Shown here: positions 5,599-17,415 of the stretch, piece by piece
Layout of the letters: the number at the start of each line of letters is the position of its first letter
Numbering within the stretch: the first letter of the stretch is position 1
From: an uncultured virus (IMG/VR IMGVR_UViG_3300029985_000038)
Taxonomy: Duplodnaviria; Heunggongvirae; Uroviricota; Caudoviricetes
Direction: 5' to 3' (one strand)
DNA: 20,000 bases
Virus record (IMG/VR): IMGVR_UViG_3300029985_000038
Notes under the pieces: generated by a model
What the model was told of the DNA's origin: nothing
Databases searched by the model: none
What the model saw: only the letters and a program-made list of their open reading frames with translations
Program-made: the position numbers and the translations under genes

Positions 5599-6889
5599 AT
5601 CTAATATTATGAATTAGTTGCGCTTCCATACCATTCTTCTTATCCCATACAAAAGCTTCTGAGGAACGGATGTTACCAACATAGCCCTTTGAATAATGCC
5701 AGAAGTCAGCAGTAGTTAAAGATGGAAGAATTCTGGTGCGTACACCAACGTTTTCATCTACATCTATTCTAGAATAGACTTTCTTACTGTGGAAGTGTCC
5801 AATGTGAACTTCACGGAATGTAGCCTTAGCCCATAATTGTGGTTCTTCTTGTGCCATAATTAAAGGTAATTGAGTAATCTTTTCCTCATTACCATGAGTA
5901 AACATCAATAAGACTTCTCCGTAGTCGTAATACTTTCTCTTCTTTGGAGAGTTGTAAATTGAAACTTCTGGATCGTTTGCATAACATAGATCCAAAGCAT
6001 CGCCAAGATAGAACATGGTTTCTACATCATGGTTTCCTGGGACAATAACAACGTCTACAGCCGCAACTTCTCTTAGACGATTAATTACATCACAAAGCAT
6101 TATTCGTGCCTCTCTGTACAATTTAAAGTGTCTACTATCAGTATCTTGGTGAGTACCTTTGGTTGTTGTATTTAATAGGTTATCGCTATTTAAGTAGTCA
6201 TTTCCAACAACGAAAAGAATCTTTTCGACATTGAATCCAGCCGCTTTTTGCAATAGATCATTTACAGCATCACAATAGGTTTTCTTAGCAATTTTAAGGT
6301 CGTAATCGTTACCGACTTCTTCACCCCAACACAATTTACCTAAGTGATGGTCTGCAATACAGATTTGCAATAGCTTACCATCATTAGATTTTACTCTAGT
6401 TGGAGTTCCAAATGCGGTTGGTGAATAGTTTTTAAGATCGTCTTTAAGTTCGTTATAAATCTTTTTGAGATTAACAACTTCCTTTTTCTTTTTCAGAGTT
6501 GCTTTAACTTGGAACAAAGGTTGAACCTTCGTGTCAAATCCAGCCCTAGAATCAGAATCAATCTTAATAAATCCTTCCCACTTATTGACAACAAATCTTT
6601 CTACTTCCCAAATAGACGTATCTACTTGTGCGTATTCCAATAATTCATCCAGCGTGTGAATTGAAGTCTTGTTAATAGCAATGCTTAGTGTGTCTTTTGT
6701 TTCAACAATTTGTTCATTGTTTACTAAATTAGATTTAGTTACAGCTTCCGCAGTTGCGGGTTTATTACTTTTCTCTAAAAACAATTTTACCTGTCTTAAA
6801 GTTCCACCATGTCTTGTACCTAATTCATTTCTAGTCATACCAGTTGAACGATCTAACCAGAATTTATTTTCATCTTGAGGTTTCCACAT
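5597..6889 (-). CDS. Calcineurin-like metallophosphoesterase with long N-terminal extension
   Basis: IADHHLGK, VGNDYLN, PGNHD, FTHG and HIGHFH motifs. Start moved from 7003 to ATG 6889 (MWKPQ), which has TATAAT 6 nt upstream and removes the overlap with prs. Confidence 0.85.
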   Translation of the reverse strand: MWKPQDENKFWLDRSTGMTRNELGTRHGGTLRQVKLFLEKSNKPATAEAVTKSNLVNNEQIVETKDTLSIAINKTSIHTLDELLEYAQVDTSIWEVERFVVNKWEGFIKIDSDSRAGFDTKVQPLFQVKATLKKKKEVVNLKKIYNELKDDLKNYSPTAFGTPTRVKSNDGKLLQICIADHHLGKLCWGEEVGNDYDLKIAKKTYCDAVNDLLQKAAGFNVEKILFVVGNDYLNSDNLLNTTTKGTHQDTDSRHFKLYREARIMLCDVINRLREVAAVDVVIVPGNHDVETMFYLGDALDLCYANDPEVSIYNSPKKRKYYDYGEVLLMFTHGNEEKITQLPLIMAQEEPQLWAKATFREVHIGHFHSKKVYSRIDVDENVGVRTRILPSLTTADFWHYSKGYVGNIRSSEAFVWDKKNGMEAQLIHNIR

Positions 6890-6964
6890 GTTTTTATTAT
6901 ACGAAAAGCTGCTCGTTATTACCTGCTCGTGTTTTTCAAAGAATCGAGCGGGTATAATAAATCC
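6890..6964. promoter_or_regulatory. Divergent promoter region with two -10 boxes and repeats
   Basis: TATAAT on the minus strand at 6896-6901 and on the plus strand at 6953-6958, each 6 nt from an ATG. CTGCTCGT occurs twice, with an inverted copy CGAGCGGG. Confidence 0.65.
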
Positions 6965-7918
6965 ATGATTAATGATTATGTTGTCTATGATGGTGGTCAA
7001 CACCCCGAACTTGCGAAATTAATTGCCGATAGAGTTGGTTCTTTAGGCATTTTGACTGTTAAAAGATTTGCTGATGGTGAAATTGGTGTTAATATTGAGG
7101 AAAGCGTTCGTGATAAGAAAGTTTTCTTGATTGCTCCAACTGCACCACCAGTTAATGATAGCTTAATGGCACTTATGATTAGCTTAGATGCTTTTATGAG
7201 AGCTTCAGCTAGTGAGGTTAATGTGGTAATGCCATATTTTGGATATGCTCGTCAAGACAAAAAGGTTCATCCAAGAGAACCTATTACAGCAAAATTGGTG
7301 GCTAACATGCTTCAAATGTATAGTAACGTGAATCGAATCGTTACTTTAGATTTACACGCTCCACAAATTCAAGGTTTCTTTAATATTCCGGTAGACCATT
7401 TGTACGGTGGTCCACTTATTGCTGATTACTTCTTGGAAAGAGAATTTCATAAACAAAATATTGTTGTAGTGTCACCTGACGTATCTAGTGTTAGTAGAGC
7501 TAGAGGATTGGCTGATGTTTTGAAGTGTCCAATTGCGATCATTTCTAAGCGTAGACCAGTTGCTAATGAAGTTGAAATTATGGAAATCATTGGTGATGTT
7601 GATGATAAAATCTGCATTATGCTTGATGATATGTGCGATACAGGTTCAACTCTCGTGAAAGGATCTGAGGCTTTAATGCATCGTGGTGCAACTGAAGTTT
7701 ATATGGCTGCAACTCATGGACTATTTTCTGGTAAGGCTAAGAATAATTTTATGTCCGCAGATCACATTAAAGAAGTTGTATGTTTAAACACGACACCAAT
7801 GAATCAACATAAAATTTTTGATAAATTAACTGTTTTAGATTGTTCTCCAATGATTGCAGAAGCTATTGAACGAATTGCTGCTAATAAATCAGTTAGCGAA
7901 ATGTTTAATCGTGGATAA
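6965..7918 (+). CDS. prs: Ribose-phosphate pyrophosphokinase (PRPP synthetase)
   Basis: RFADGE, MPYFGYARQDKK, LDLHAPQIQGFF, VVVSPD and LDDMCDTGST (PRPP-binding loop), ATHGLFS. Start moved to ATG 6965. Confidence 0.95.
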   Translation: MINDYVVYDGGQHPELAKLIADRVGSLGILTVKRFADGEIGVNIEESVRDKKVFLIAPTAPPVNDSLMALMISLDAFMRASASEVNVVMPYFGYARQDKKVHPREPITAKLVANMLQMYSNVNRIVTLDLHAPQIQGFFNIPVDHLYGGPLIADYFLEREFHKQNIVVVSPDVSSVSRARGLADVLKCPIAIISKRRPVANEVEIMEIIGDVDDKICIMLDDMCDTGSTLVKGSEALMHRGATEVYMAATHGLFSGKAKNNFMSADHIKEVVCLNTTPMNQHKIFDKLTVLDCSPMIAEAIERIAANKSVSEMFNRG

Positions 7919-9080: not shown

Positions 9081-9155
9081 ATGATGAACGCAACATCCAA
9101 TATGAATATCACTTCCAGCGTTCGTCTTCAGCAACGAAGACAGCAACGCCCATAA
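9081..9155 (+). CDS. Putative Gln/Arg-rich leader peptide MMNATSNMNITSSVRLQQRRQQRP (24 aa), absent from the ORF track
   Basis: TATAAT 9066-9071 and AAGGA 9072-9076 upstream. 8 of the last 10 codons are Gln or Arg. The TAA stop lies in the loop of hairpin ACGCCC-ATAA-GGGCGT, about 70 nt before the tRNA cluster. Confidence 0.65.
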   Translation: MMNATSNMNITSSVRLQQRRQQRP

Positions 9156-9226
9156 GGGCGTCTCTTTATGTCTACGTATATGTGCTGGCAATCCCAACCC
9201 TGTTTCTAAAATTTAATATATATTAT

Positions 9227-9297
9227 TGTGGATTCGTTCAATGGCAGGACCTAACACTTTGAATGTTAGTATTAGAGTTCGAATCTCTGATCCACGG
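9227..9297 (+). tRNA. tRNA-Gln(TTG)
   Basis: Acceptor TGTGGAT/ATCCACG, D-arm GTTC..GGAC, anticodon arm TAACA-CTTTGAA-TGTTA, T-loop TTCGAAT, G73; no encoded CCA. Confidence 0.92.
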
Positions 9298-9306
9298 CGA
9301 GAAAAT

Positions 9307-9406
9307 AGCGGATTCGTATAATGGTTATTATAATGGGCTTTTATTTCCTTTTCTTTAAAAGGGCGTAAGGAACCCACTGATTGGAGTTCGATTCTCTGAT
9401 CCGCTG
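9307..9406 (+). tRNA. tRNA with a 28-nt insert/intron in the anticodon loop (Gln-like body, anticodon uncertain)
   Basis: Acceptor AGCGGAT/ATCCGCT with normal D and T arms. Anticodon stem ATGGG/CCCAC encloses 35 nt (9338-9372) instead of 7. Confidence 0.75.
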
Positions 9407-9430
9407 CCGAGAGTTCTTTGAAAACATAAT

Positions 9431-9501
9431 AGCGGGTACTAATGGTTAGGAAAACGACTCTGAATCGTTTTAAAAGAGTTCGATTCTCTTACCCGCCGCC
9501 A
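9431..9501 (+). tRNA. tRNA-Gln(CTG), atypical compact D-arm
   Basis: Acceptor AGCGGGT/ACCCGCC, anticodon arm AAAACGA-CTCTGAA-TCGTTTT, T-arm AAGAG-TTCGATT-CTCTT, G73 plus encoded CCA. Confidence 0.8.
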
Positions 9502-9543
9502 ATTTTAAAGGAAATGATTTGAATTATTTTGAATGTTCAAAGT

Positions 9544-9960
9544 ATGGAATATAAAACTTGTTCAAAATGTCATTTAAAGAAATCTTTAGATTGTTTTAAT
9601 AAAAAAAGTGATAGAATTTTACAAACATATTGTAAAGATTGTCAAAAAAACATATCTCATGAACATTATGTAAAAAATAAACATACTTATTTAAGTAGAA
9701 ATATTAAAAGGAAGATAGATACAAGAGAATTTATAAATAGTTTAAAATTAAAACCATGTGTTGATTGTGGAAATCAATATGATCCGTGTGCAATGGATTT
9801 TGACCATATGGATGATAAAGAATATGATATATCTTCTATGGTAACTGTTGGTTTTTCTAAAAAATCTATTTTGAAAGAAATTTTAAAATGTGAATTAGTA
9901 TGTGCTGTTTGTCATAGAATTAGAACTAAAAAAAGATTAGAGAAAAGTATCTCCCTGTAG
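9544..9960 (+). CDS. HNH-type endonuclease with N-terminal zinc finger, free-standing in the tRNA cluster
   Basis: CSKC...CKDC, then CVDCG...MDFDH...KCELVCAVCHRIRT. Probable start is ATG 9544; the TAG stop overlaps the next tRNA. Confidence 0.8.
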   Translation: MEYKTCSKCHLKKSLDCFNKKSDRILQTYCKDCQKNISHEHYVKNKHTYLSRNIKRKIDTREFINSLKLKPCVDCGNQYDPCAMDFDHMDDKEYDISSMVTVGFSKKSILKEILKCELVCAVCHRIRTKKRLEKSISL

Positions 9961-10023
9961 TTCAGTGGATAGAATACAAGGTTGCGGACCTCGTGGTCGT
10001 GGGTTCGAGTCCCACTGGGGAGG
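9951..10023 (+). tRNA. tRNA-Arg(GCG)
   Basis: Acceptor CTCCCTG/TGGGGAG, D-loop AGTGGATA (A20), anticodon loop TTGCGGA, T-arm GTGGG-TTCGAGT-CCCAC. Confidence 0.88.
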
Positions 10024-10040
10024 CGAGAAAAATTTAATAT

Positions 10041-10118
10041 CTCCGCGTAGTAAGGGTGGTCTACGAAGCCATACACTTTAACGGACTGAAAATGCAGGTT
10101 CGAATCCTGTCGTGGAGG
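10041..10118 (+). tRNA. Non-canonical tRNA-Arg(ACG)-like RNA (no D-arm at the normal position)
   Basis: Acceptor CTCCGCG/CGTGGAG, T-arm GCAGG-TTCGAAT-CCTGT, anticodon arm GTGGT-CTACGAA-GCCAT only 8 nt after the acceptor strand; TAACGGACTGA lies 3' of it. Confidence 0.7.
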
Positions 10119-10129
10119 CGAGATATAAT

Positions 10130-10201
10130 ACCCTTGTGGTCCAATGGATGGGCTTCCGTCTTCGAAACGGATTTATGCTAGTTCGATTCTAGTCAAGGGT
10201 G
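10130..10201 (+). tRNA. tRNA-Arg(TCG)
   Basis: Acceptor ACCCTTG/CAAGGGT, D-loop AATGGAT, anticodon arm TCCGT-CTTCGAA-ACGGA, T-loop TTCGATT. Confidence 0.92.
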
Positions 10202-10212
10202 CGAGAATAAAT

Positions 10213-10299
10213 GCGGTGGTACACCATCGGTCTTCTAAACCGAATAAGTTAACTGGAGTGAGATCATTTCAAATACGGGTTCGAATCCCGTCTTCCGCG
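10213..10299 (+). tRNA. Non-canonical tRNA-Arg(TCT)-like RNA (no D-arm at the normal position)
   Basis: Acceptor GCGGTGG/CTTCCGC, anticodon arm TCGGT-CTTCTAA-ACCGA 7 nt after the acceptor strand, 31-nt region containing TAACTGGAGTGA, T-arm ACGGG-TTCGAAT-CCCGT. Confidence 0.7.
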
Positions 10300-10310
10300 C
10301 CGAGAAAAAT

Positions 10311-10382
10311 TTCCATATATCTCAAGGGATAGAGTCTCAGTTTCCTAAACTGAAGGTATGGGTTCGAATCCCATTATGGAAG
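10311..10382 (+). tRNA. tRNA-Arg(CCT)
   Basis: Acceptor TTCCATA/TATGGAA, anticodon arm TCAGT-TTCCTAA-ACTGA, T-arm ATGGG-TTCGAAT-CCCAT. Confidence 0.9.
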
Positions 10383-10404
10383 CGAGTTTAACTATAATAT
10401 CATT

Positions 10405-11983: not shown

Positions 11984-13246
11984 CGATAATTCTTTAAATT
12001 AAAGAATTTAAAGAAGGAATATTTTAATATCATATAGTATATAATTATGTGATAACAGATATTAAAGTAAGATTATATACAAACAAGGATCAATATAAAT
12101 CATTATTGAATTCTTTGTTGTGCTTTAATAAAATATGTAATTATATTTCTAATCAATCTTTTATTCACGGAAATGTAAAAAATAAAACTATATTGCATAA
12201 AATTACTTATAATTTAACTCGTGAGAATTTAAAAGAAGCAGATTCTCAGGTTACAATTAGAGCTATATCTAGAGTTGCAGATTCTTATAAGGTTTCTGTG
12301 CCTATTCAAGAAATTTTAAATAAAAAACGTATAATTAAAGGATTAAAACCGAAAGAAATAAAACCTAATTATTTTAAGCCAATTGCATCTATGGAATTGG
12401 ATAAATGGACAATGAGGTTTTTACAAATAAATAAATTATCTTTATGGTCGCCAGATGGAAGAATTCATGTCGATTATTCTATTCCTGATTATTTCAAATC
12501 TAGATTCAATAAAGATAAAATCAAGATGGCTAAATTGGTCTTGCAAAATGGTAAATTTTGGCTTCATTGCTCTATTGAAGAAAATGAACCAGAATTACAA
12601 GATCATATAGGATTTTTAGGAATTGATCAAGGTCAAGTTTATTTAGTGTCTGACTCCGAAGGAGAACAATATGAAGGCAAGACATTACAAAAGATAAGCA
12701 ATAAATATAAAACAAGAAGAGAATCATTACAAAAAAGTAAGAAAGCTAAGAAAACGAGAGCTAAAGCTAGAGCTTGGAAAAAATTAAGCAAGAAAGAATC
12801 TAGATTTAGACAAGATGTTAATCATCAAATAAGTAAAAGAATTGTTCAAAAAGCGAAAAACTTAAAGCAATGTATCGTCTTAGAAGACTTAAACGACTTC
12901 TTTGAAGATATAAAAGTTAGGCGTGAGAATAAATTTATGAGAAAATCTTGGGCATTCGCCCAACTAATCTTCTACATTCAATATAAAGCATTAAGAGAAG
13001 GAATAAGATGTATATTAGTTAACCCAGCTTATACCTCTCAACAATGCTATAATTGTAGATATTGTGATTCGAAGAATCGCAAATCACAAAGTATATTTGA
13101 ATGTATCAAATGTGGGTATATAAATAATGCAGATATTAATGCTGCCCTAAATATTGCCCTCAAGGGCAAATGTCAATTGTCCTATAGTTCGACAGCGGAA
13201 GCTGTTTAGAATAAATTAAACGAAAGTTTTATGAATTGATCCGTCG
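11984..13246 (+). mobile_element. tnpB-only IS200/IS605-derived element
   Basis: tnpB plus predicted omegaRNA, no tnpA. ATCCGTCG occurs at both sides (11976-11983 and 13239-13246); 10-bp inverted repeat at 11988-12008. Confidence 0.6.
12049..13209 (+). CDS. tnpB: RNA-guided endonuclease TnpB
   Basis: RuvC-I LGIDQG, RuvC-II IVLEDL, NPAYTSQQCYNC...CIKC zinc finger, RuvC-III NADINAALNI; D-E-D triad intact; 386 aa. Confidence 0.93.
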   Translation: MITDIKVRLYTNKDQYKSLLNSLLCFNKICNYISNQSFIHGNVKNKTILHKITYNLTRENLKEADSQVTIRAISRVADSYKVSVPIQEILNKKRIIKGLKPKEIKPNYFKPIASMELDKWTMRFLQINKLSLWSPDGRIHVDYSIPDYFKSRFNKDKIKMAKLVLQNGKFWLHCSIEENEPELQDHIGFLGIDQGQVYLVSDSEGEQYEGKTLQKISNKYKTRRESLQKSKKAKKTRAKARAWKKLSKKESRFRQDVNHQISKRIVQKAKNLKQCIVLEDLNDFFEDIKVRRENKFMRKSWAFAQLIFYIQYKALREGIRCILVNPAYTSQQCYNCRYCDSKNRKSQSIFECIKCGYINNADINAALNIALKGKCQLSYSSTAEAV

Positions 13247-15961: not shown

Positions 15962-17386
15962 TTACAAAGCAGCGTTAGCTCTAACAGTAGCCCAATCGTA
16001 AGCTTTGGTGACTTGTCCATTTCGGAACACTTCAACTAGATGATCCTGTTCGCCCTTAGCCTTAGCTTCAGCTTGAGAAACTGTAGTGAATACACCATCT
16101 CTCTTAATTAGTGACAAACGACCAGCCTTTGACTTCTTACCTGGATCAGTGATCGGATCTTTGAATACGTTGATATCCTCTCCATCAATTGTAGCTTCAG
16201 AACACTTAAAAGCGAACTTATTGGTGTCTCTATCAAGCTTCTGAAGTAGCGCACCACCCATACCAAAAGCAAGATTATCCATAGATTGACCGTGATTCTT
16301 TAGTTCTTGCATGATGTCCACACCAGATTCTAGACAAACACCGTCGCCTTGGATAACACGAACATGAGGATTAAGGACATCGTAACCCTTAGAGTTAGTT
16401 TCCATTCCAAACTGTTCGCCAAGAATCTTGATGATTTCTGGAACTACGACTCTTGCATTTCCGCTATCAGGTCGAACAACTAGAACACCATTTCGATTAA
16501 GAACCTTATCTTTTAGTTTCTTACCCCAGATTTCTCTACAAGCATTGAAGATGTCATAGCTATCACTTACACAAGCAACGAATCCTTCTGGGAATTCTTC
16601 TAGCATATTGTTGTAAGCATCTTCCTCATGAAGTCTACCCCATGAAGTCATTGTGCTGTGTTCTGATGCAGGAATTGAATTACCAGCGCAGAAATCACCA
16701 TAGATGTCATCAACTAAATCAAGAGCGATGTAAGTATCTGTTCCTTTAAAGTTTACCAAGTGAGCAGCACCACCGATTGCCGCAGATTCAACTGAGCTAA
16801 CGCCTCTGAATCCAAAGTCATGTAGCTTATAGTCGATTCCAGCAGGATCACCAGTTTCAATAAGGAAGCGTAAAATGTTCTTCTTGAAGTCTCTTGAAAG
16901 ACTACAAACAGTCGTAGGAAACCAATTTTGAACAAGAAGACTTTCGACAGAATTTGTAAGCCAGTAAGATGACTCTTCGTGCTTTGCAAGAAATTCGTCG
17001 TCAGTAATTTTAACGTCCATGAGAACGTTATGTGTAGGAACCGTAATACCTTCAGCAACGGCTCTAATAGAAAGAGGAAGGTAACCGTTATGCTTTTCGA
17101 GAATATGTTCCCAACCAGAACGATTAAAAAGGTCTTGACCGAAAAAGTGAGGCTTTGCACGATTGGCAGCGTCGTCAATATTTTTTCTAGTAACTACTTG
17201 ACCGGCAAGATATTGGACTAAGGTGTATTGCAATCCGAAGAATGTAGTTTCATCAAACTTACCACCACGAGATTCGAAATAGGATCGGATGTTGGTGGTC
17301 TTCTTTGGGTACTGACCCTTATGGGTGAGTTTGTAGCTATCTGTTAGCTTAACGATGTTATTATATTGAACTTTTCTAAGTGTCAT
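15962..17386 (-). CDS. nadV: Nicotinamide phosphoribosyltransferase (NAMPT/NadV)
   Basis: TDSYKLTH, YFESRGG, LHDFGFRG, GTDT, SIPASEHS, VSDSYD, RPDSG, IQGDG, AFGMGG and KKSKAG. Start at ATG 17386 with AGGA SD and TACAAT at 17404-17409. Confidence 0.95.
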   Translation of the reverse strand: MTLRKVQYNNIVKLTDSYKLTHKGQYPKKTTNIRSYFESRGGKFDETTFFGLQYTLVQYLAGQVVTRKNIDDAANRAKPHFFGQDLFNRSGWEHILEKHNGYLPLSIRAVAEGITVPTHNVLMDVKITDDEFLAKHEESSYWLTNSVESLLVQNWFPTTVCSLSRDFKKNILRFLIETGDPAGIDYKLHDFGFRGVSSVESAAIGGAAHLVNFKGTDTYIALDLVDDIYGDFCAGNSIPASEHSTMTSWGRLHEEDAYNNMLEEFPEGFVACVSDSYDIFNACREIWGKKLKDKVLNRNGVLVVRPDSGNARVVVPEIIKILGEQFGMETNSKGYDVLNPHVRVIQGDGVCLESGVDIMQELKNHGQSMDNLAFGMGGALLQKLDRDTNKFAFKCSEATIDGEDINVFKDPITDPGKKSKAGRLSLIKRDGVFTTVSQAEAKAKGEQDHLVEVFRNGQVTKAYDWATVRANAAL

Positions 17387-17415
17387 TTTTGTTTCCTGTG
17401 TGTATTGTACCAACG

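Follow-up and report, generated by a model that had tools for sequence, protein, structure and literature searches.

Two tRNA-Arg-like genes in a 20,000-nucleotide stretch of DNA from an uncultured virus (the whole stretch analysed here, referred to as the window) raise the question of whether an RNA can work as a tRNA when the order of its core elements is changed. The initial annotation of this locus proposed that both RNAs carry their D-loop motif 3' of the anticodon arm and that this arrangement reflects a selected alternative fold rather than decay.

RESULTS

A D-loop motif 3' of the anticodon arm in two tRNA-Arg genes

The two rewired genes, RNA 1 (10041-10118, anticodon ACG) and RNA 2 (10213-10299, anticodon UCU), lie among three canonical Arg tRNA genes, GCG (9951-10024), UCG (10130-10202) and CCU (10311-10383). 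Their parts are as follows.

9951..10383, + strand: run of five Arg tRNA genes, the two rewired ones interleaved with the three canonical ones
10041..10118, + strand: RNA 1, whole gene; rewired tRNA-Arg(ACG), discriminator G10118 included, CCA not encoded
10041..10047, + strand: RNA 1, acceptor 5' strand, pairs with 10111-10117 (CTCCGCG/CGTGGAG, 7 of 7 pairs)
10048..10050, + strand: RNA 1, U8, A9 and N10 (G); N10 pairs with C10086
10052..10055, + strand: RNA 1, 5' strand of the proposed nested D* helix (AAG, then G), read from the sequence
10056..10072, + strand: RNA 1, anticodon arm GTGGT-CTACGAA-GCCAT (5-bp stem, 7-nt loop, ACG at 10063-10065)
10073..10078, + strand: RNA 1, 3' linker ACACTT (A, C as partner of G10055, A, then CTT as D* 3' strand)
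10079..10085, + strand: RNA 1, relocated D-loop motif TAACGGA (U-A14-A15-C16-G18-G19-A20, numbering by analogy)
10086..10093, + strand: RNA 1, N21 (C, pairs with G10050) and connector UGAAAAU, ending in a U48-like base
10094..10110, + strand: RNA 1, T arm GCAGG-TTCGAAT-CCTGT, read from the sequence
10213..10299, + strand: RNA 2, whole gene; rewired tRNA-Arg(UCU), discriminator G10299 included, CCA not encoded
10220..10226, + strand: RNA 2, connector TACACCA (U8, A9, C10, A11, C12, C13, A14), register from alignment A1 and model R1
10227..10243, + strand: RNA 2, anticodon arm TCGGT-CTTCTAA-ACCGA (anticodon TCT at 10234-10236)
10250..10258, + strand: RNA 2, relocated D-loop motif UAACUGGA and N21 (G), from direct reading and the alignment
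10259..10274, + strand: RNA 2, connector UGA, 9-nt insert GATCATTTC (10262-10270) and AAAU, from the alignment
10275..10291, + strand: RNA 2, T arm ACGGG-TTCGAAT-CCCGT, from direct reading and the parse

The acceptor, anticodon and T arms of both RNAs are normal as read from the sequence and parsed, with the T loop TTCGAAT in both and the anticodon loops CTACGAA in RNA 1 and CTTCTAA in RNA 2; the presence of U8-A9 was a requirement of the parse. Neither RNA has a D arm on the 5' side of the anticodon arm. The gap between acceptor stem and anticodon arm is 8 nt in RNA 1 (TAGTAAGG) and 7 nt in RNA 2, and the D-loop-like UAAC(U)GGA sits 3' of the anticodon arm. Direct reading and parsing thus confirmed the displacement described in the initial annotation, which had placed the motifs exactly (10079-10089 and 10250-10261). 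In RNA 1, AAG can be read to pair with CTT at 10076-10078 and G10055 with C10074, while U10051 is an extra bulged base that appears as an insertion in the R1 alignment. The corresponding pairs read in RNA 2 are C10-G10258 and A14-T10245, together with those of A11 and C12 with G10248 and T10249, and C13 is unpaired; here, the 3' linker is ATAAGT and the D-loop-like motif TAACTGGA (10250-10257).

RNA 2 has two peculiarities. Its acceptor stem (GCGGTGG/CTTCCGC) has 6 of 7 pairs and one T-T mismatch, and its 9-nt insert is unique among 64 aligned sequences of the family described below. In the minimum-energy fold of RNA 2, UGGAGUG pairs with CAUUUCA and G18-G19 would be buried; pairing of the insert with the GG motif is possible and would be in competition with T-loop docking.

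Both RNAs have an Arg identity set, consisting of GGA, C35, G36 or U36, and G73, with "position 20" assigned by analogy. As noted in the initial annotation, GGA also lies in the D-loop of the three canonical Arg tRNAs (9951, 10130 and 10311), while the Gln-type tRNAs have GGC or GGT. The nucleotides for the U8-A14, 15-48 and G18-G19/T-loop contacts are present, the contacts themselves being of a kind that is not visible in a sequence. An intron or a permuted gene was rejected as an explanation, as no removal of a single segment restores a cloverleaf with an anticodon.

A large family of rewired tRNAs in viruses

Motif scans of viral and metagenome contigs gave 150 distinct rewired tRNA sequences, all of them with an anticodon for Arg (ACG, UCU, UCG, CCU) or Ile (GAU, UAU). 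In viral contigs, 29 of 38 loci found with the first motif were members, as were 66 of 85 loci in metagenome contigs; the 62 further distinct sequences obtained in this way and the two window RNAs make up a set of 64, all Arg (ACG 29, UCU 21, UCG 13, CCU 1). The second motif, in which the anticodon was left free by the pattern, gave 86 distinct sequences. A recurrence of the arrangement on this scale is not due to chance. Much of the invariance seen in the set, at GGA, UGAAAAU, the T loop and U8-A9, was built in by the search patterns or the parse.

Among cultured phages, members were found in those of Streptomyces, Pseudomonas, Xanthomonas, Microbacterium, Rhodococcus and Rhizobium; a scan of 185,579 prokaryotic species genomes with one motif returned no member. 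A look-alike in T5-like phages (29.1 bits in Salmonella phage bombadil, 28.8 bits in Klebsiella phage Uniso31) has a 4-bp stem and a 10-nt loop in place of the anticodon arm and was not counted as a member.

Standard tRNA finders mostly miss this family. ARAGORN calls neither RNA 1 nor RNA 2 and overlapped only 6 of the 150 members. With the Rfam tRNA model (RF00005, gathering cut-off 29 bits), RNA 1 scores 16.3 bits, below the cut-off, and RNA 2 35.5 bits, above it; in the loci of 20 relatives, a member passed the cut-off in 5. Using model R1, RNA 1 and RNA 2 score 71.0 and 67.9 bits, respectively, and canonical tRNAs at most 35.5. GenBank records leave members unlabelled or label them "hypothetical protein", "tRNA-OTHER", "tRNA-Phe" or "tRNA-Leu". 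Altogether, the rewired tRNAs form a large family that was seen here only in viruses.

An exact 41-base query from RNA 2 had no match in viral contigs, a megablast search of GenBank phages with the entire window gave no match, and the sole match in a distant blastn search with the tRNA cluster was a tRNA-Arg of a crAss-like phage. The stretch is contained in 14 sequencing runs, all of DNA. Most of them carry the label peat metagenome, and two are labelled lake water; contigs from four of these runs have no differences in it. In a full-text literature search, whose coverage excluded subscription journals, we found no description of the nested arrangement.

A covarying helix encloses the anticodon hairpin

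In the 64-sequence set, 97.2% of 1408 helix cells are paired compared with 64.1% in shuffles, and the four new pairs are 83.6% paired compared with 45.2%, with 0 of 500 shuffles as high in either case; as the sequences are related, these controls overstate significance. Compensatory double changes occur in 18 of 22 pairs, and every helix has some. The acceptor helix is 98.2% paired with double changes in all seven pairs, the anticodon stem 98.1% and the T helix 99.1%. Positions 33 and 37 of the anticodon loop, which was unconstrained by the search patterns, are T and A in 64/64.

Covariation indicates a nested helix around the anticodon hairpin. The two bases that precede UAAY are partners of N11 and N12 in 62 of 64 sequences each, and all four Watson-Crick types occur. 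Column pair 11-39 is CG in 28 sequences, UA in 24, AU in 5, GC in 5 and other in 2, while column pair 13-38 is GC in 29, CG in 23, AU in 9, UA in 1 and other in 2; pair 15-34 fails in 19/64. When the partners in the four new pairs are slid by 1-3 columns, only 19-40% remain paired, and by mutual information the new pairs rank with those of the canonical stems. N11 is paired with its partner in 86/86 sequences of the second motif set (CG 46, AU 30, GC 6, UA 4). The segment N10-N14 is 5 nt long in 61 of the 64 sequences, and the 3' linker, the first A of which is at least 90% conserved in the family, is 6 or 7 nt long in all of them. TAA of the relocated motif is present in 64/64, although no search pattern demanded it.

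The helix drawn in the initial annotation, in which U8, A9 and base 10 pair with the bases around the end of the motif, is correct in part. The third of these pairs, between base 10 and the base after GGA, covaries (N10-N21: AU 13, GC 13, UA 12, CG 6, GU 1 and unpaired 19 in 64 sequences); it is not general, because N10 is U in 82/86 of the second motif set while the next base varies. The candidate U8-G and A9-U pairs are invariant, and they are absent in relatives with the connectors GAU, AAGAU or NACAU, which have no UG. The main enclosing helix, formed by N11-N12(-N13) with the two to three bases directly 5' of UAAC, had been overlooked.

Might the connectors be flexible linkers, with neither a nested helix nor a docked GG, as in mitochondrial-type tRNAs without a D arm? 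The Rfam tRNA model aligns RNA 2 in this manner, with the D arm deleted and 28 nt inserted in the variable region; RNAalifold returned the three standard helices only, with neither a D hairpin nor a fourth helix; and the nested helix comprises only two to four pairs. However, pairs 11-39 and 13-38 covary as strongly as the canonical stems, the family has conserved TAA and GG, a canonical T loop and fixed linker lengths, and positions 15 and 48 switch together. We consider flexible linkers very unlikely. Energy folding likewise misses the nested structure, which is calculated at -13.8 kcal/mol for RNA 1 (minimum, -21.9) and -11.9 kcal/mol for RNA 2 (minimum, -24.7).

The same data bear on whether the two genes are pseudogenes, i.e. 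decaying tRNA-Arg duplicates in a cluster that a homing endonuclease had shuffled. The HNH endonuclease gene inside the cluster, two other odd tRNA-like genes nearby, the mismatch and insert in RNA 2, and the low-scoring look-alike without an anticodon loop in T5-like phages (28.8-29.1 bits) would fit such a history. It is nonetheless extremely improbable, since the same architecture is found in 150 distinct sequences from unrelated phages, every helix has compensatory changes and the identity nucleotides track the anticodon; at the level of sequence, covariation already contradicts decay. The proposal of a selected alternative fold, in turn, is strongly supported by family conservation, covariation and identity-element tracking.

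A putative tertiary pair and identity nucleotides

The bases matching the Levitt pair (15-48) covary, switching together between A-U and G-C. With U before the T stem and position 15 free in the pattern, A is found in 64/64; with C before the T stem and A or G allowed at 15, G is found in all 12 parsed member loci. The mixed combinations did not yield members: A at 15 with C before the T stem gave three loci, none tRNA-like, and the G15/U48 pattern gave one locus, which is not a rewired member.

Only two isotypes, Arg and Ile, were seen, and both ArgRS and IleRS use D-loop nucleotides as identity elements (PMC9976931). The identity sets given in that source are A20, C35, U/G36 and A/G73 for bacterial tRNA-Arg, and A73, G16, U20, U21 and the anticodon loop for bacterial tRNA-Ile. 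In the 86 sequences of the second motif set, in which the base after GG was left free, this base is A in 31/31 Arg members and U in 54/55 Ile members, as would be expected if A20 is an ArgRS element, the role that the initial annotation had assigned to it. The discriminator is A in 55/55 Ile members, and in the Arg members G in 17, A in 13 and U in 1. Judged by sequence, the identity nucleotides of the rewired Arg and Ile members follow the anticodon and match the bacterial identity sets.

Gene neighborhood, codon demand and anticodon sets

Each of the five Arg tRNA genes, rewired and canonical alike, is followed by the 3' trailer (C)CGAG. An HNH endonuclease gene lies inside the tRNA cluster, and two further odd tRNA-like genes are found nearby. 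A promoter scan of the window gave 7 sites versus 7.3 expected, i.e. no excess; terminator-like sites number 4 versus 0.8 expected, and one of them (9146-9161, + strand) is located just upstream of the cluster.

Arg codons in the 29 window ORFs are AGA (132), CGT (53), CGA (18), CGC (15), AGG (13) and CGG (2), and the rewired ACG and UCU would serve the two commonest of them. These anticodons are distinct from GCG, UCG and CCU of the canonical neighbors, with no overlap. Similarly, the sole annotated Arg tRNA of Streptomyces phage Mildred21 is CCU, while its rewired copies carry UCU, UCG and ACG. Genes for tRNA repair also occur in phages with members; those of Mildred21 are for an RNA ligase, a polynucleotide kinase, a CCA-adding enzyme and a Ro-like protein.

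Such repair genes in carrier phages are among the reasons to ask if the rewired RNAs are tRNA-like decoys or otherwise non-translational RNAs, which would keep the features recognized by ArgRS or by nucleases and either soak up a factor or donate Arg off the ribosome. The fold departs from a normal ribosome substrate, the GG motif of RNA 2 is possibly buried by the insert, and host tRNA-cutting defenses together with phage tRNAs that counter them are described in published work (PMC10264068, PMC12409363, PMC13096335). In contrast, the family has four Arg and two Ile anticodons in normal 7-nt loops with U33 and A37, its anticodon sets do not overlap those of canonical neighbors, the rewired pair bears the anticodons for the commonest Arg codons of the phage, the 12-bp acceptor/T limb that binds EF-Tu is intact, and the anticodon limb has a conserved length. 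A decoy would have no need for these anticodon, limb or EF-Tu features, and we regard this function as unlikely.

DISCUSSION

Here, we present an analysis of two viral tRNA-Arg-like RNAs and their relatives. Based on these sequence comparisons, RNA 1 and RNA 2 are probably working Arg tRNAs from a family that is carried by viruses and has its core elements in a changed order. Starting at the acceptor stem, the chain would pass through U8-A9, the short 5' strand N10-N14, the anticodon hairpin and the complementary 3' strand. Next would come the D-loop-like U-A-A-Y-(N)-G-G-A, a connector whose length varies and whose last base is U, and the T arm, from which the chain would return to the acceptor stem. 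With this order, the anticodon arm would be nested inside the D arm, and the four-way junction of the cloverleaf would become a three-way junction. We suggest that the normal core layers are kept, namely U8-A14, A15-U48 and the docking of G18-G19 on the T loop, and that ten layers lead from the core to the anticodon loop, as in a normal tRNA. In the rewired RNAs, these would be N10-N21, N11, N12, N13, N14 paired with the second base 3' to the anticodon stem, and the five anticodon-stem pairs; in a normal tRNA, they are four D-stem pairs, 26-44 and five anticodon-stem pairs. With the core layers kept and a limb of ten layers, an L of normal size would still be formed. The host ArgRS would charge such a tRNA through A20, C35, G/U36 and G73, and on the ribosome, ACG would read CGU, CGC and CGA after the usual deamination of A34, and UCU would read AGA.

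Why the fold was selected is a matter on which we can only be tentative. Our leading guess is an escape from host factors that recognize the normal D arm or core, e.g. tRNA-cutting defense nucleases. We speculate that phages may possess an Arg/Ile topology of their own, which can be charged by ArgRS and IleRS and fits the ribosome but is invisible or resistant to host factors reading the D arm or core; this possibility, too, is better seen as a conjecture than as an expectation. The factors in question would be tRNA-cutting immune nucleases, toxins and quality control, and the fold would then be a structural form of counter-defense. If so, nature would have arrived at the L-shape in a second way, the topology would offer a ready scaffold for orthogonal tRNAs, and many phage genomes would hold unannotated or mislabelled tRNA genes. 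Because members are missed or mislabelled, analyses of codon supply and counter-defense in phages are incomplete. Members are at hand in cultured phages of tractable hosts, i.e. Streptomyces, Pseudomonas syringae, Xanthomonas, Microbacterium and Rhodococcus.

Compared with canonical tRNA-Arg (RF00005), the rewired RNAs share the 7-bp acceptor stem, the 5-bp T stem with its UUCGAAU loop, the 5-bp anticodon stem, the loop CU-NNN-AA, the D-loop GGA, the Arg anticodons and the 3' trailer; with the canonical tRNA-Arg(UCU) of Streptomyces phage Wofford, they have the T arm and the AAAUU variable loop in common. They differ in lacking a D hairpin between positions 9 and 26 and in having the D-loop 3' of the anticodon arm, in that the 5' rather than the 3' strand of the D-helix continues into the anticodon stem, and in having a three-way instead of a four-way junction. 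Permuted tRNA genes of a red alga and the tRNA-like structure of turnip yellow mosaic virus also reach a tRNA shape via another segment order; the former are processed into a normal cloverleaf, and the latter is the 3' end of a genome and not a free adaptor. To our knowledge, neither nests the anticodon arm in the D arm.

D-arm-less mitochondrial tRNAs have lost the contact between G18-G19 and the T loop. Those of metazoans (tRNA-Ser(AGY) and nematode tRNA-Ser) resemble the rewired RNAs in having a short connector in place of a D hairpin on the 5' side of the anticodon arm and, in PMC7609411, are described as having a T arm that is short and a fold that is flexible and less rigid than the canonical L. 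In contrast, UAA..GG is retained in the rewired RNAs, together with a T loop of canonical form and covariation between 15 and 48; if they work, they do so with the ordinary bacterial translation apparatus. The allo-tRNAs, or 8/4 and 9/3 tRNAs (Mukai et al., PMC5389517), are similarly non-standard and derive from metagenomes and phage tRNA clusters; according to that work, UAU (Ile) and GCG (Arg) are among their predominant anticodons, and some come from soil or peat data. Their acceptor stem has 8 or 9 bp and their T stem 4 or 3 bp, their variable arm is long, and their D hairpin is in the normal position (PMC5389517), whereas the rewired RNAs have a 7/5 branch, a displaced D-loop and no long variable arm; a variable-arm hairpin is absent in 63/64, and the insert of RNA 2 could form one. 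The engineered "mini HisT", which lacks a D arm, is usable by a bacterial synthetase, EF-Tu and the ribosome, as stated by Edelmann et al. (PMC11551756); it is artificial and its D arm was deleted, whereas the D-loop of the rewired RNAs is relocated. If active, the rewired RNAs would be a viral exception, namely a natural, conserved adaptor whose strand topology differs and in which the core of the L-shape is apparently kept, and they would show which parts of the cloverleaf are really needed by synthetases, EF-Tu, RNase P and the ribosome.

RESULTS

Two rewired tRNA-Arg genes in a phage tRNA cluster

The window is AT-rich (G+C 32.9%) and phage-like by its PHROG matches, which include DNA ligase, exonuclease, HNH endonuclease and transposase as well as nicotinamide phosphoribosyltransferase and ribose-phosphate pyrophosphokinase; megablast with the whole window found no close relative among GenBank phages. 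Eight tRNA-like genes form one plus-strand run (window 9227-10383). ARAGORN calls four of them (Gln-UUG, Arg-GCG, Arg-UCG and Arg-CCU), and the Rfam tRNA model adds 9307-9406, 9431-9498 and 10213-10299 and gives the RNA 1 region 10059-10118 only 16.3 bits.

Features of the window
6875-7918, + strand, ribose-phosphate pyrophosphokinase-like protein
9307-9406, + strand, tRNA-like gene with Gln-type body (Rfam tRNA 40.1 bits; not called by ARAGORN)
9431-9498, + strand, tRNA-Gln(CUG)-like gene (Rfam 31.1 bits; not called by ARAGORN)
9529-9960, + strand, HNH endonuclease gene within the tRNA cluster (phrog_2255, E 1.3e-29)
10041-10118, + strand, RNA 1, rewired tRNA-Arg(ACG)
10213-10299, + strand, RNA 2, rewired tRNA-Arg(UCU)
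12049-13209, + strand, transposase-like ORF (phrog_506, E 1.7e-45)
15962-17413, - strand, nicotinamide phosphoribosyltransferase (E 3.9e-146)

In both RNA 1 and RNA 2, the acceptor stem has 7 bp (one of them a T-T mismatch in RNA 2), the anticodon stem has 5 bp and a loop of 7 nt (CTACGAA in RNA 1, CTTCTAA in RNA 2), the T arm is canonical and base 73 is G; the place of the D arm holds only 8 nt (RNA 1) or 7 nt (RNA 2). A D-loop-like motif lies 3' of the anticodon arm, as TAACGGA-C-TGA in RNA 1 and TAACTGGA-G-TGA in RNA 2. Parsing the sequence thus confirmed the layout described in the initial annotation (acceptor stems, canonical T arms, G73, 7-nt anticodon loops and a 7-8 nt connector), which had also placed the relocated motif exactly in both RNAs, at 10079-10089 and 10250-10261. 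The Rfam model can align RNA 2 only with the D arm deleted and 28 nt inserted before the T arm. The new pairs are G10-C21, AAG with CUU (U10051 bulged) and G15-C in RNA 1, and C10-G21, AC with GU and A14-U in RNA 2. Because a 9-nt insert unique to RNA 2 is able, based on folding, to pair with its own GG motif, RNA 2 may be impaired or regulated.

CGAG or CCGAG, usually followed by A, stands directly after the discriminator in seven of the eight genes (window 9298-10392), the exception being 9431-9498, which is followed by CCAAT; this trailer may be a signal for 3' processing that the genes share, or a remnant of unit duplication. The gene at 9307-9406 carries a 29-nt insertion after position 37 of the anticodon loop; when folded, its anticodon arm is lengthened to a long hairpin with a 4-nt loop cap and the normal 7-nt loop is gone, so that it could be an intron-bearing gene or a tRNA-like RNA. 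In 9431-9498, the D arm is shrunken, with a CUAA/UUAG stem closing the 3-nt loop UGG. HNH genes adjoin rewired tRNAs in Streptomyces phage Mildred21 too, and rewired tRNA genes may have been moved between phages by homing endonucleases. The nicotinamide phosphoribosyltransferase and the pyrophosphokinase-like protein resemble a phage enzyme pair for NAD+ salvage, which may be linked to counter-defence.

The rewired layout recurs in viral and metagenome contigs and in cultured phages

A loose search of viral contigs for the shared motif gave five loci (four distinct sequences), all with the rewired layout and an Arg anticodon and within tRNA clusters of G+C-rich phages. The main motif of the first set, GGANTGAAAATNNNNNTTCGANTCC, matched 38 loci in viral contigs (28 complete members, one cut at the contig end and nine chance matches) and 85 in metagenome contigs (65 complete, one cut and 19 chance matches). 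Among 185,579 prokaryote species (one genome each), it matched 12 loci, all of which lack a T stem and the layout of a tRNA, and ARAGORN found no tRNA in these 12. The first set comprises 64 distinct sequences, window RNAs included, with Arg anticodons throughout (ACG 29, UCU 21, UCG 13, CCU 1). R1, a covariance model of the family, separates it from ordinary tRNAs, scoring RNA 1 at 71.0 bits, RNA 2 at 67.9 bits and other members at 51-90 bits versus at most 35.5 bits for canonical tRNAs. R1 also picked up members in which a different connector joins GGA to the T stem, of 3 nt (GAU), 5 nt (AAGAU, UACAU) and 8 nt (NUGAAAAU); a 17-nt connector occurs in RNA 2 only. Bacterial genomes sampled from two phyla gave no R1 match (0/151 and 0/151 at E<=1e-9, strict filters), and all five phage records searched whole with R1 contained one. 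The search for homologs envisaged in the initial annotation, run here by motif and by covariance model, recovered the same arrangement in viral contigs, metagenome contigs and cultured phages.

Members in cultured phages (phage; anticodon; R1 score; GenBank annotation or position)
Microbacterium phage Pumpernickel; UCU; 77.9 bits; none
Pseudomonas phage ventosus; UCU; 77.6 bits; none
Xanthomonas phage XacN1, two copies; ACG; 74.1 bits; none
Rhodococcus phage NiceHouse; ACG; 62.3 bits; under a 'hypothetical protein'
Rhizobium phage RHph_I1_18; UCU; 57.2 bits; 3' end overlaps deoxyribonucleotidase CDS start
Streptomyces phage Mildred21; UCU; 62.8 bits; 'tRNA-OTHER'
Streptomyces phage Mildred21; UCG; 53.4 bits; 'tRNA-Phe(gaa)'
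Streptomyces phage Mildred21; ACG; 53.8 bits; none

The Mildred21 tRNA region (L297, 72000-106000) encodes tRNA nucleotidyltransferase, a Ro-like RNA-binding protein, RNA ligase, polynucleotide kinase and tmRNA, and holds two more 'tRNA-OTHER' features (97925-97997 and 98558-98686). An unannotated element of T5-like phages (L044, Salmonella phage bombadil, ~1473-1544; L148, Klebsiella phage Uniso31, 369-440) has the family acceptor, a UAACUGG-like motif and a T arm, with a 4-bp stem and 10-nt loop instead of the anticodon arm; it scores 29.1 and 28.8 bits with R1 and may be a relative that has decayed or been re-purposed. On a 463-kb viral contig (L001, 514-601), ARAGORN calls an 88-nt tRNA-Arg(CCU) with a normal D arm and an apparent long variable-arm hairpin, unusual for Arg.

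Covariation supports a nested helix and a putative 15-48 pair

In a MAFFT alignment of the 64 sequences (89 columns), pairing across the complete proposed structure reaches 97.2%, versus 64.1% in shuffles (0/500 as high) and 41-48% in slid controls. The four new pairs are jointly 83.6% paired versus 45.2% (shuffles) and 19-40% (slid). Their 5' partners lie in N10-N14, a strand of 5 nt in 61/64 sequences that precedes the anticodon hairpin; the 3' linker between the anticodon arm and UAAY measures 6 or 7 nt throughout the 64.

New pairs in the alignment (n=64)
N11 and the base adjoining UAAY on its 5' side: CG 28, UA 24, AU 5, GC 5, other 2
N12 and the base one further 5': GC 29, CG 23, AU 9, UA 1, other 2
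N10 and the base that follows GGA: AU 13, GC 13, UA 12, CG 6, GU 1, other 19
N14 and the second base past the anticodon stem: CG 33, GC 7, AU 3, UA 2, other 19

By mutual information, the N11 and N12 pairs come third and fifth when all column pairs are ranked, in the midst of the canonical stems. Because RNAalifold alone recovers no helix beyond those of the acceptor, anticodon and T arms, and the computed minimum for RNA 1 and RNA 2 is 8-13 kcal/mol below the proposed structure, the case for the nested helix comes from covariation, not energy. The initial annotation had paired the first three connector bases with the motif; of these pairs, N10 with the base after GGA does covary (unpaired in 19/64), and U8-G and A9-U cannot form in short-connector members.

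In a normal tRNA, bases 15 and 48 pair, base 48 being the last one ahead of the T stem. Where that last base is U, A stands at position 15, which the search pattern did not fix, in 64/64. With C there and A or G allowed at 15, 22 loci matched: 12 parse as members, all with G15; one further G15 locus has a 5/7 acceptor stem; four are copies of one G15 sequence with a broken acceptor stem; and two with G15 and all three with A15 are not tRNA-like. The G15-U48 pattern matched one locus, not a member. Positions 15 and 48, numbered by analogy, thus covary as A-U or G-C, with at least two switches, in the 'GGA-GC-UGAAAAC' group and in L307 and L315, G-C loci otherwise like the A-U sequences L031 and L039.

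A probable isoleucine clade with matching identity nucleotides

A fourth Mildred21 copy (loop CUGAUAA, anticodon GAU) adjoins the tRNA nucleotidyltransferase gene. By blastn, it matches 83 phage records, of which 77 are from Streptomyces phages; it is unannotated in nearly all and labelled tRNA-Leu in one. Ile-type copies also occur in a crAss-like phage (anticodon UAU) and a 462-kb uncultured phage, and all 19 loci matching the Ile-type motif in viral contigs are members. This second clade of rewired tRNAs probably decodes isoleucine. A broader motif with the anticodon left free matched at least 120 stretches; among the matches listed, 108 of 110 new loci hold a member, and bacterial genomes sampled from two phyla gave none (0/401 and 0/401). 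The second set has at least 86 distinct sequences (UAU 41, GAU 14, ACG 17, UCU 10, UCG 3, CCU 1), with no isotype beyond Arg and Ile among the matches listed.

Also among the matches listed, the base after GG is A in 31/31 Arg members and U in 54/55 Ile members (one A), in line with the initial annotation's view of this A as the ArgRS identity element A20; the discriminator is G 17, A 13 and U 1 in Arg members and A in 55/55 Ile members. L199, the one GAU member among them with A after GG, may have switched identity recently or may be a tRNA of dual identity.

DISCUSSION

The bacterial identity sets given in PMC9976931 (Table 1) are A20, C35, U/G36 and A/G73 for Arg, and A73, G16, U20, U21 and the anticodon loop for Ile. 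Because the identity nucleotides of the rewired RNAs track the anticodon and match these sets, we suggest that selection reads the displaced loop as a D-loop, at the position used by ArgRS and IleRS. This tracking is the strongest argument that rewired RNAs would be charged. That the family is confined to Arg and Ile may mean that only some synthetases tolerate the fold, or that it arose once and later switched identity.

We propose that N10-N14 would stand in for 22-26 of a normal tRNA because this strand runs directly into the anticodon stem. The returning strand would replace 44 and 10-13 and exit the helix exactly at the start of A14, keeping the geometry of the D-loop (U8-A14, A15-U48, G18-G19 docked on the T loop), the ten stacked layers from core to anticodon loop and the 12-bp acceptor/T limb. 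Because the chain would already be at the helix top past the base paired with N10, a connector of 2-3 nt should suffice, a minimum that fits the observed length range.

In 29 window ORFs, Arg codons are AGA 132, CGT 53, CGA 18, CGC 15, AGG 13 and CGG 2; the rewired UCU and ACG would therefore serve the two commonest and do not duplicate the adjoining canonical GCG, UCG and CCU genes. Escape from tRNA-directed host nucleases is an attractive candidate reason for the fold: such defences and phage tRNAs countering them have been reported (PMC10264068, PMC12409363, PMC13096335), and Mildred21 has tRNA repair genes.

Standard tools mostly overlook rewired genes: ARAGORN overlaps 6 of 150 collected members, with ends or isotype wrong, and the Rfam tRNA model reaches its cut-off in 5 of 20 sampled relatives and one of the two window RNAs. 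We found no description of the arrangement in the full-text literature (subscription journals outside coverage), and the accessible text of a review of non-canonical tRNAs (PMC7609411) contains neither 'phage' nor 'virus'. In the available portion of the paper on 8/4 and 9/3 tRNAs, phages are named only for 8/4 tRNA-Ser and tRNA-His (PMC5389517), and a 2024 paper describes all known bacterial tRNAs as canonical cloverleaves (PMC11551756). Compared with the cloverleaf, the N10, N11, N12 and N14 pairs are new in the rewired family.
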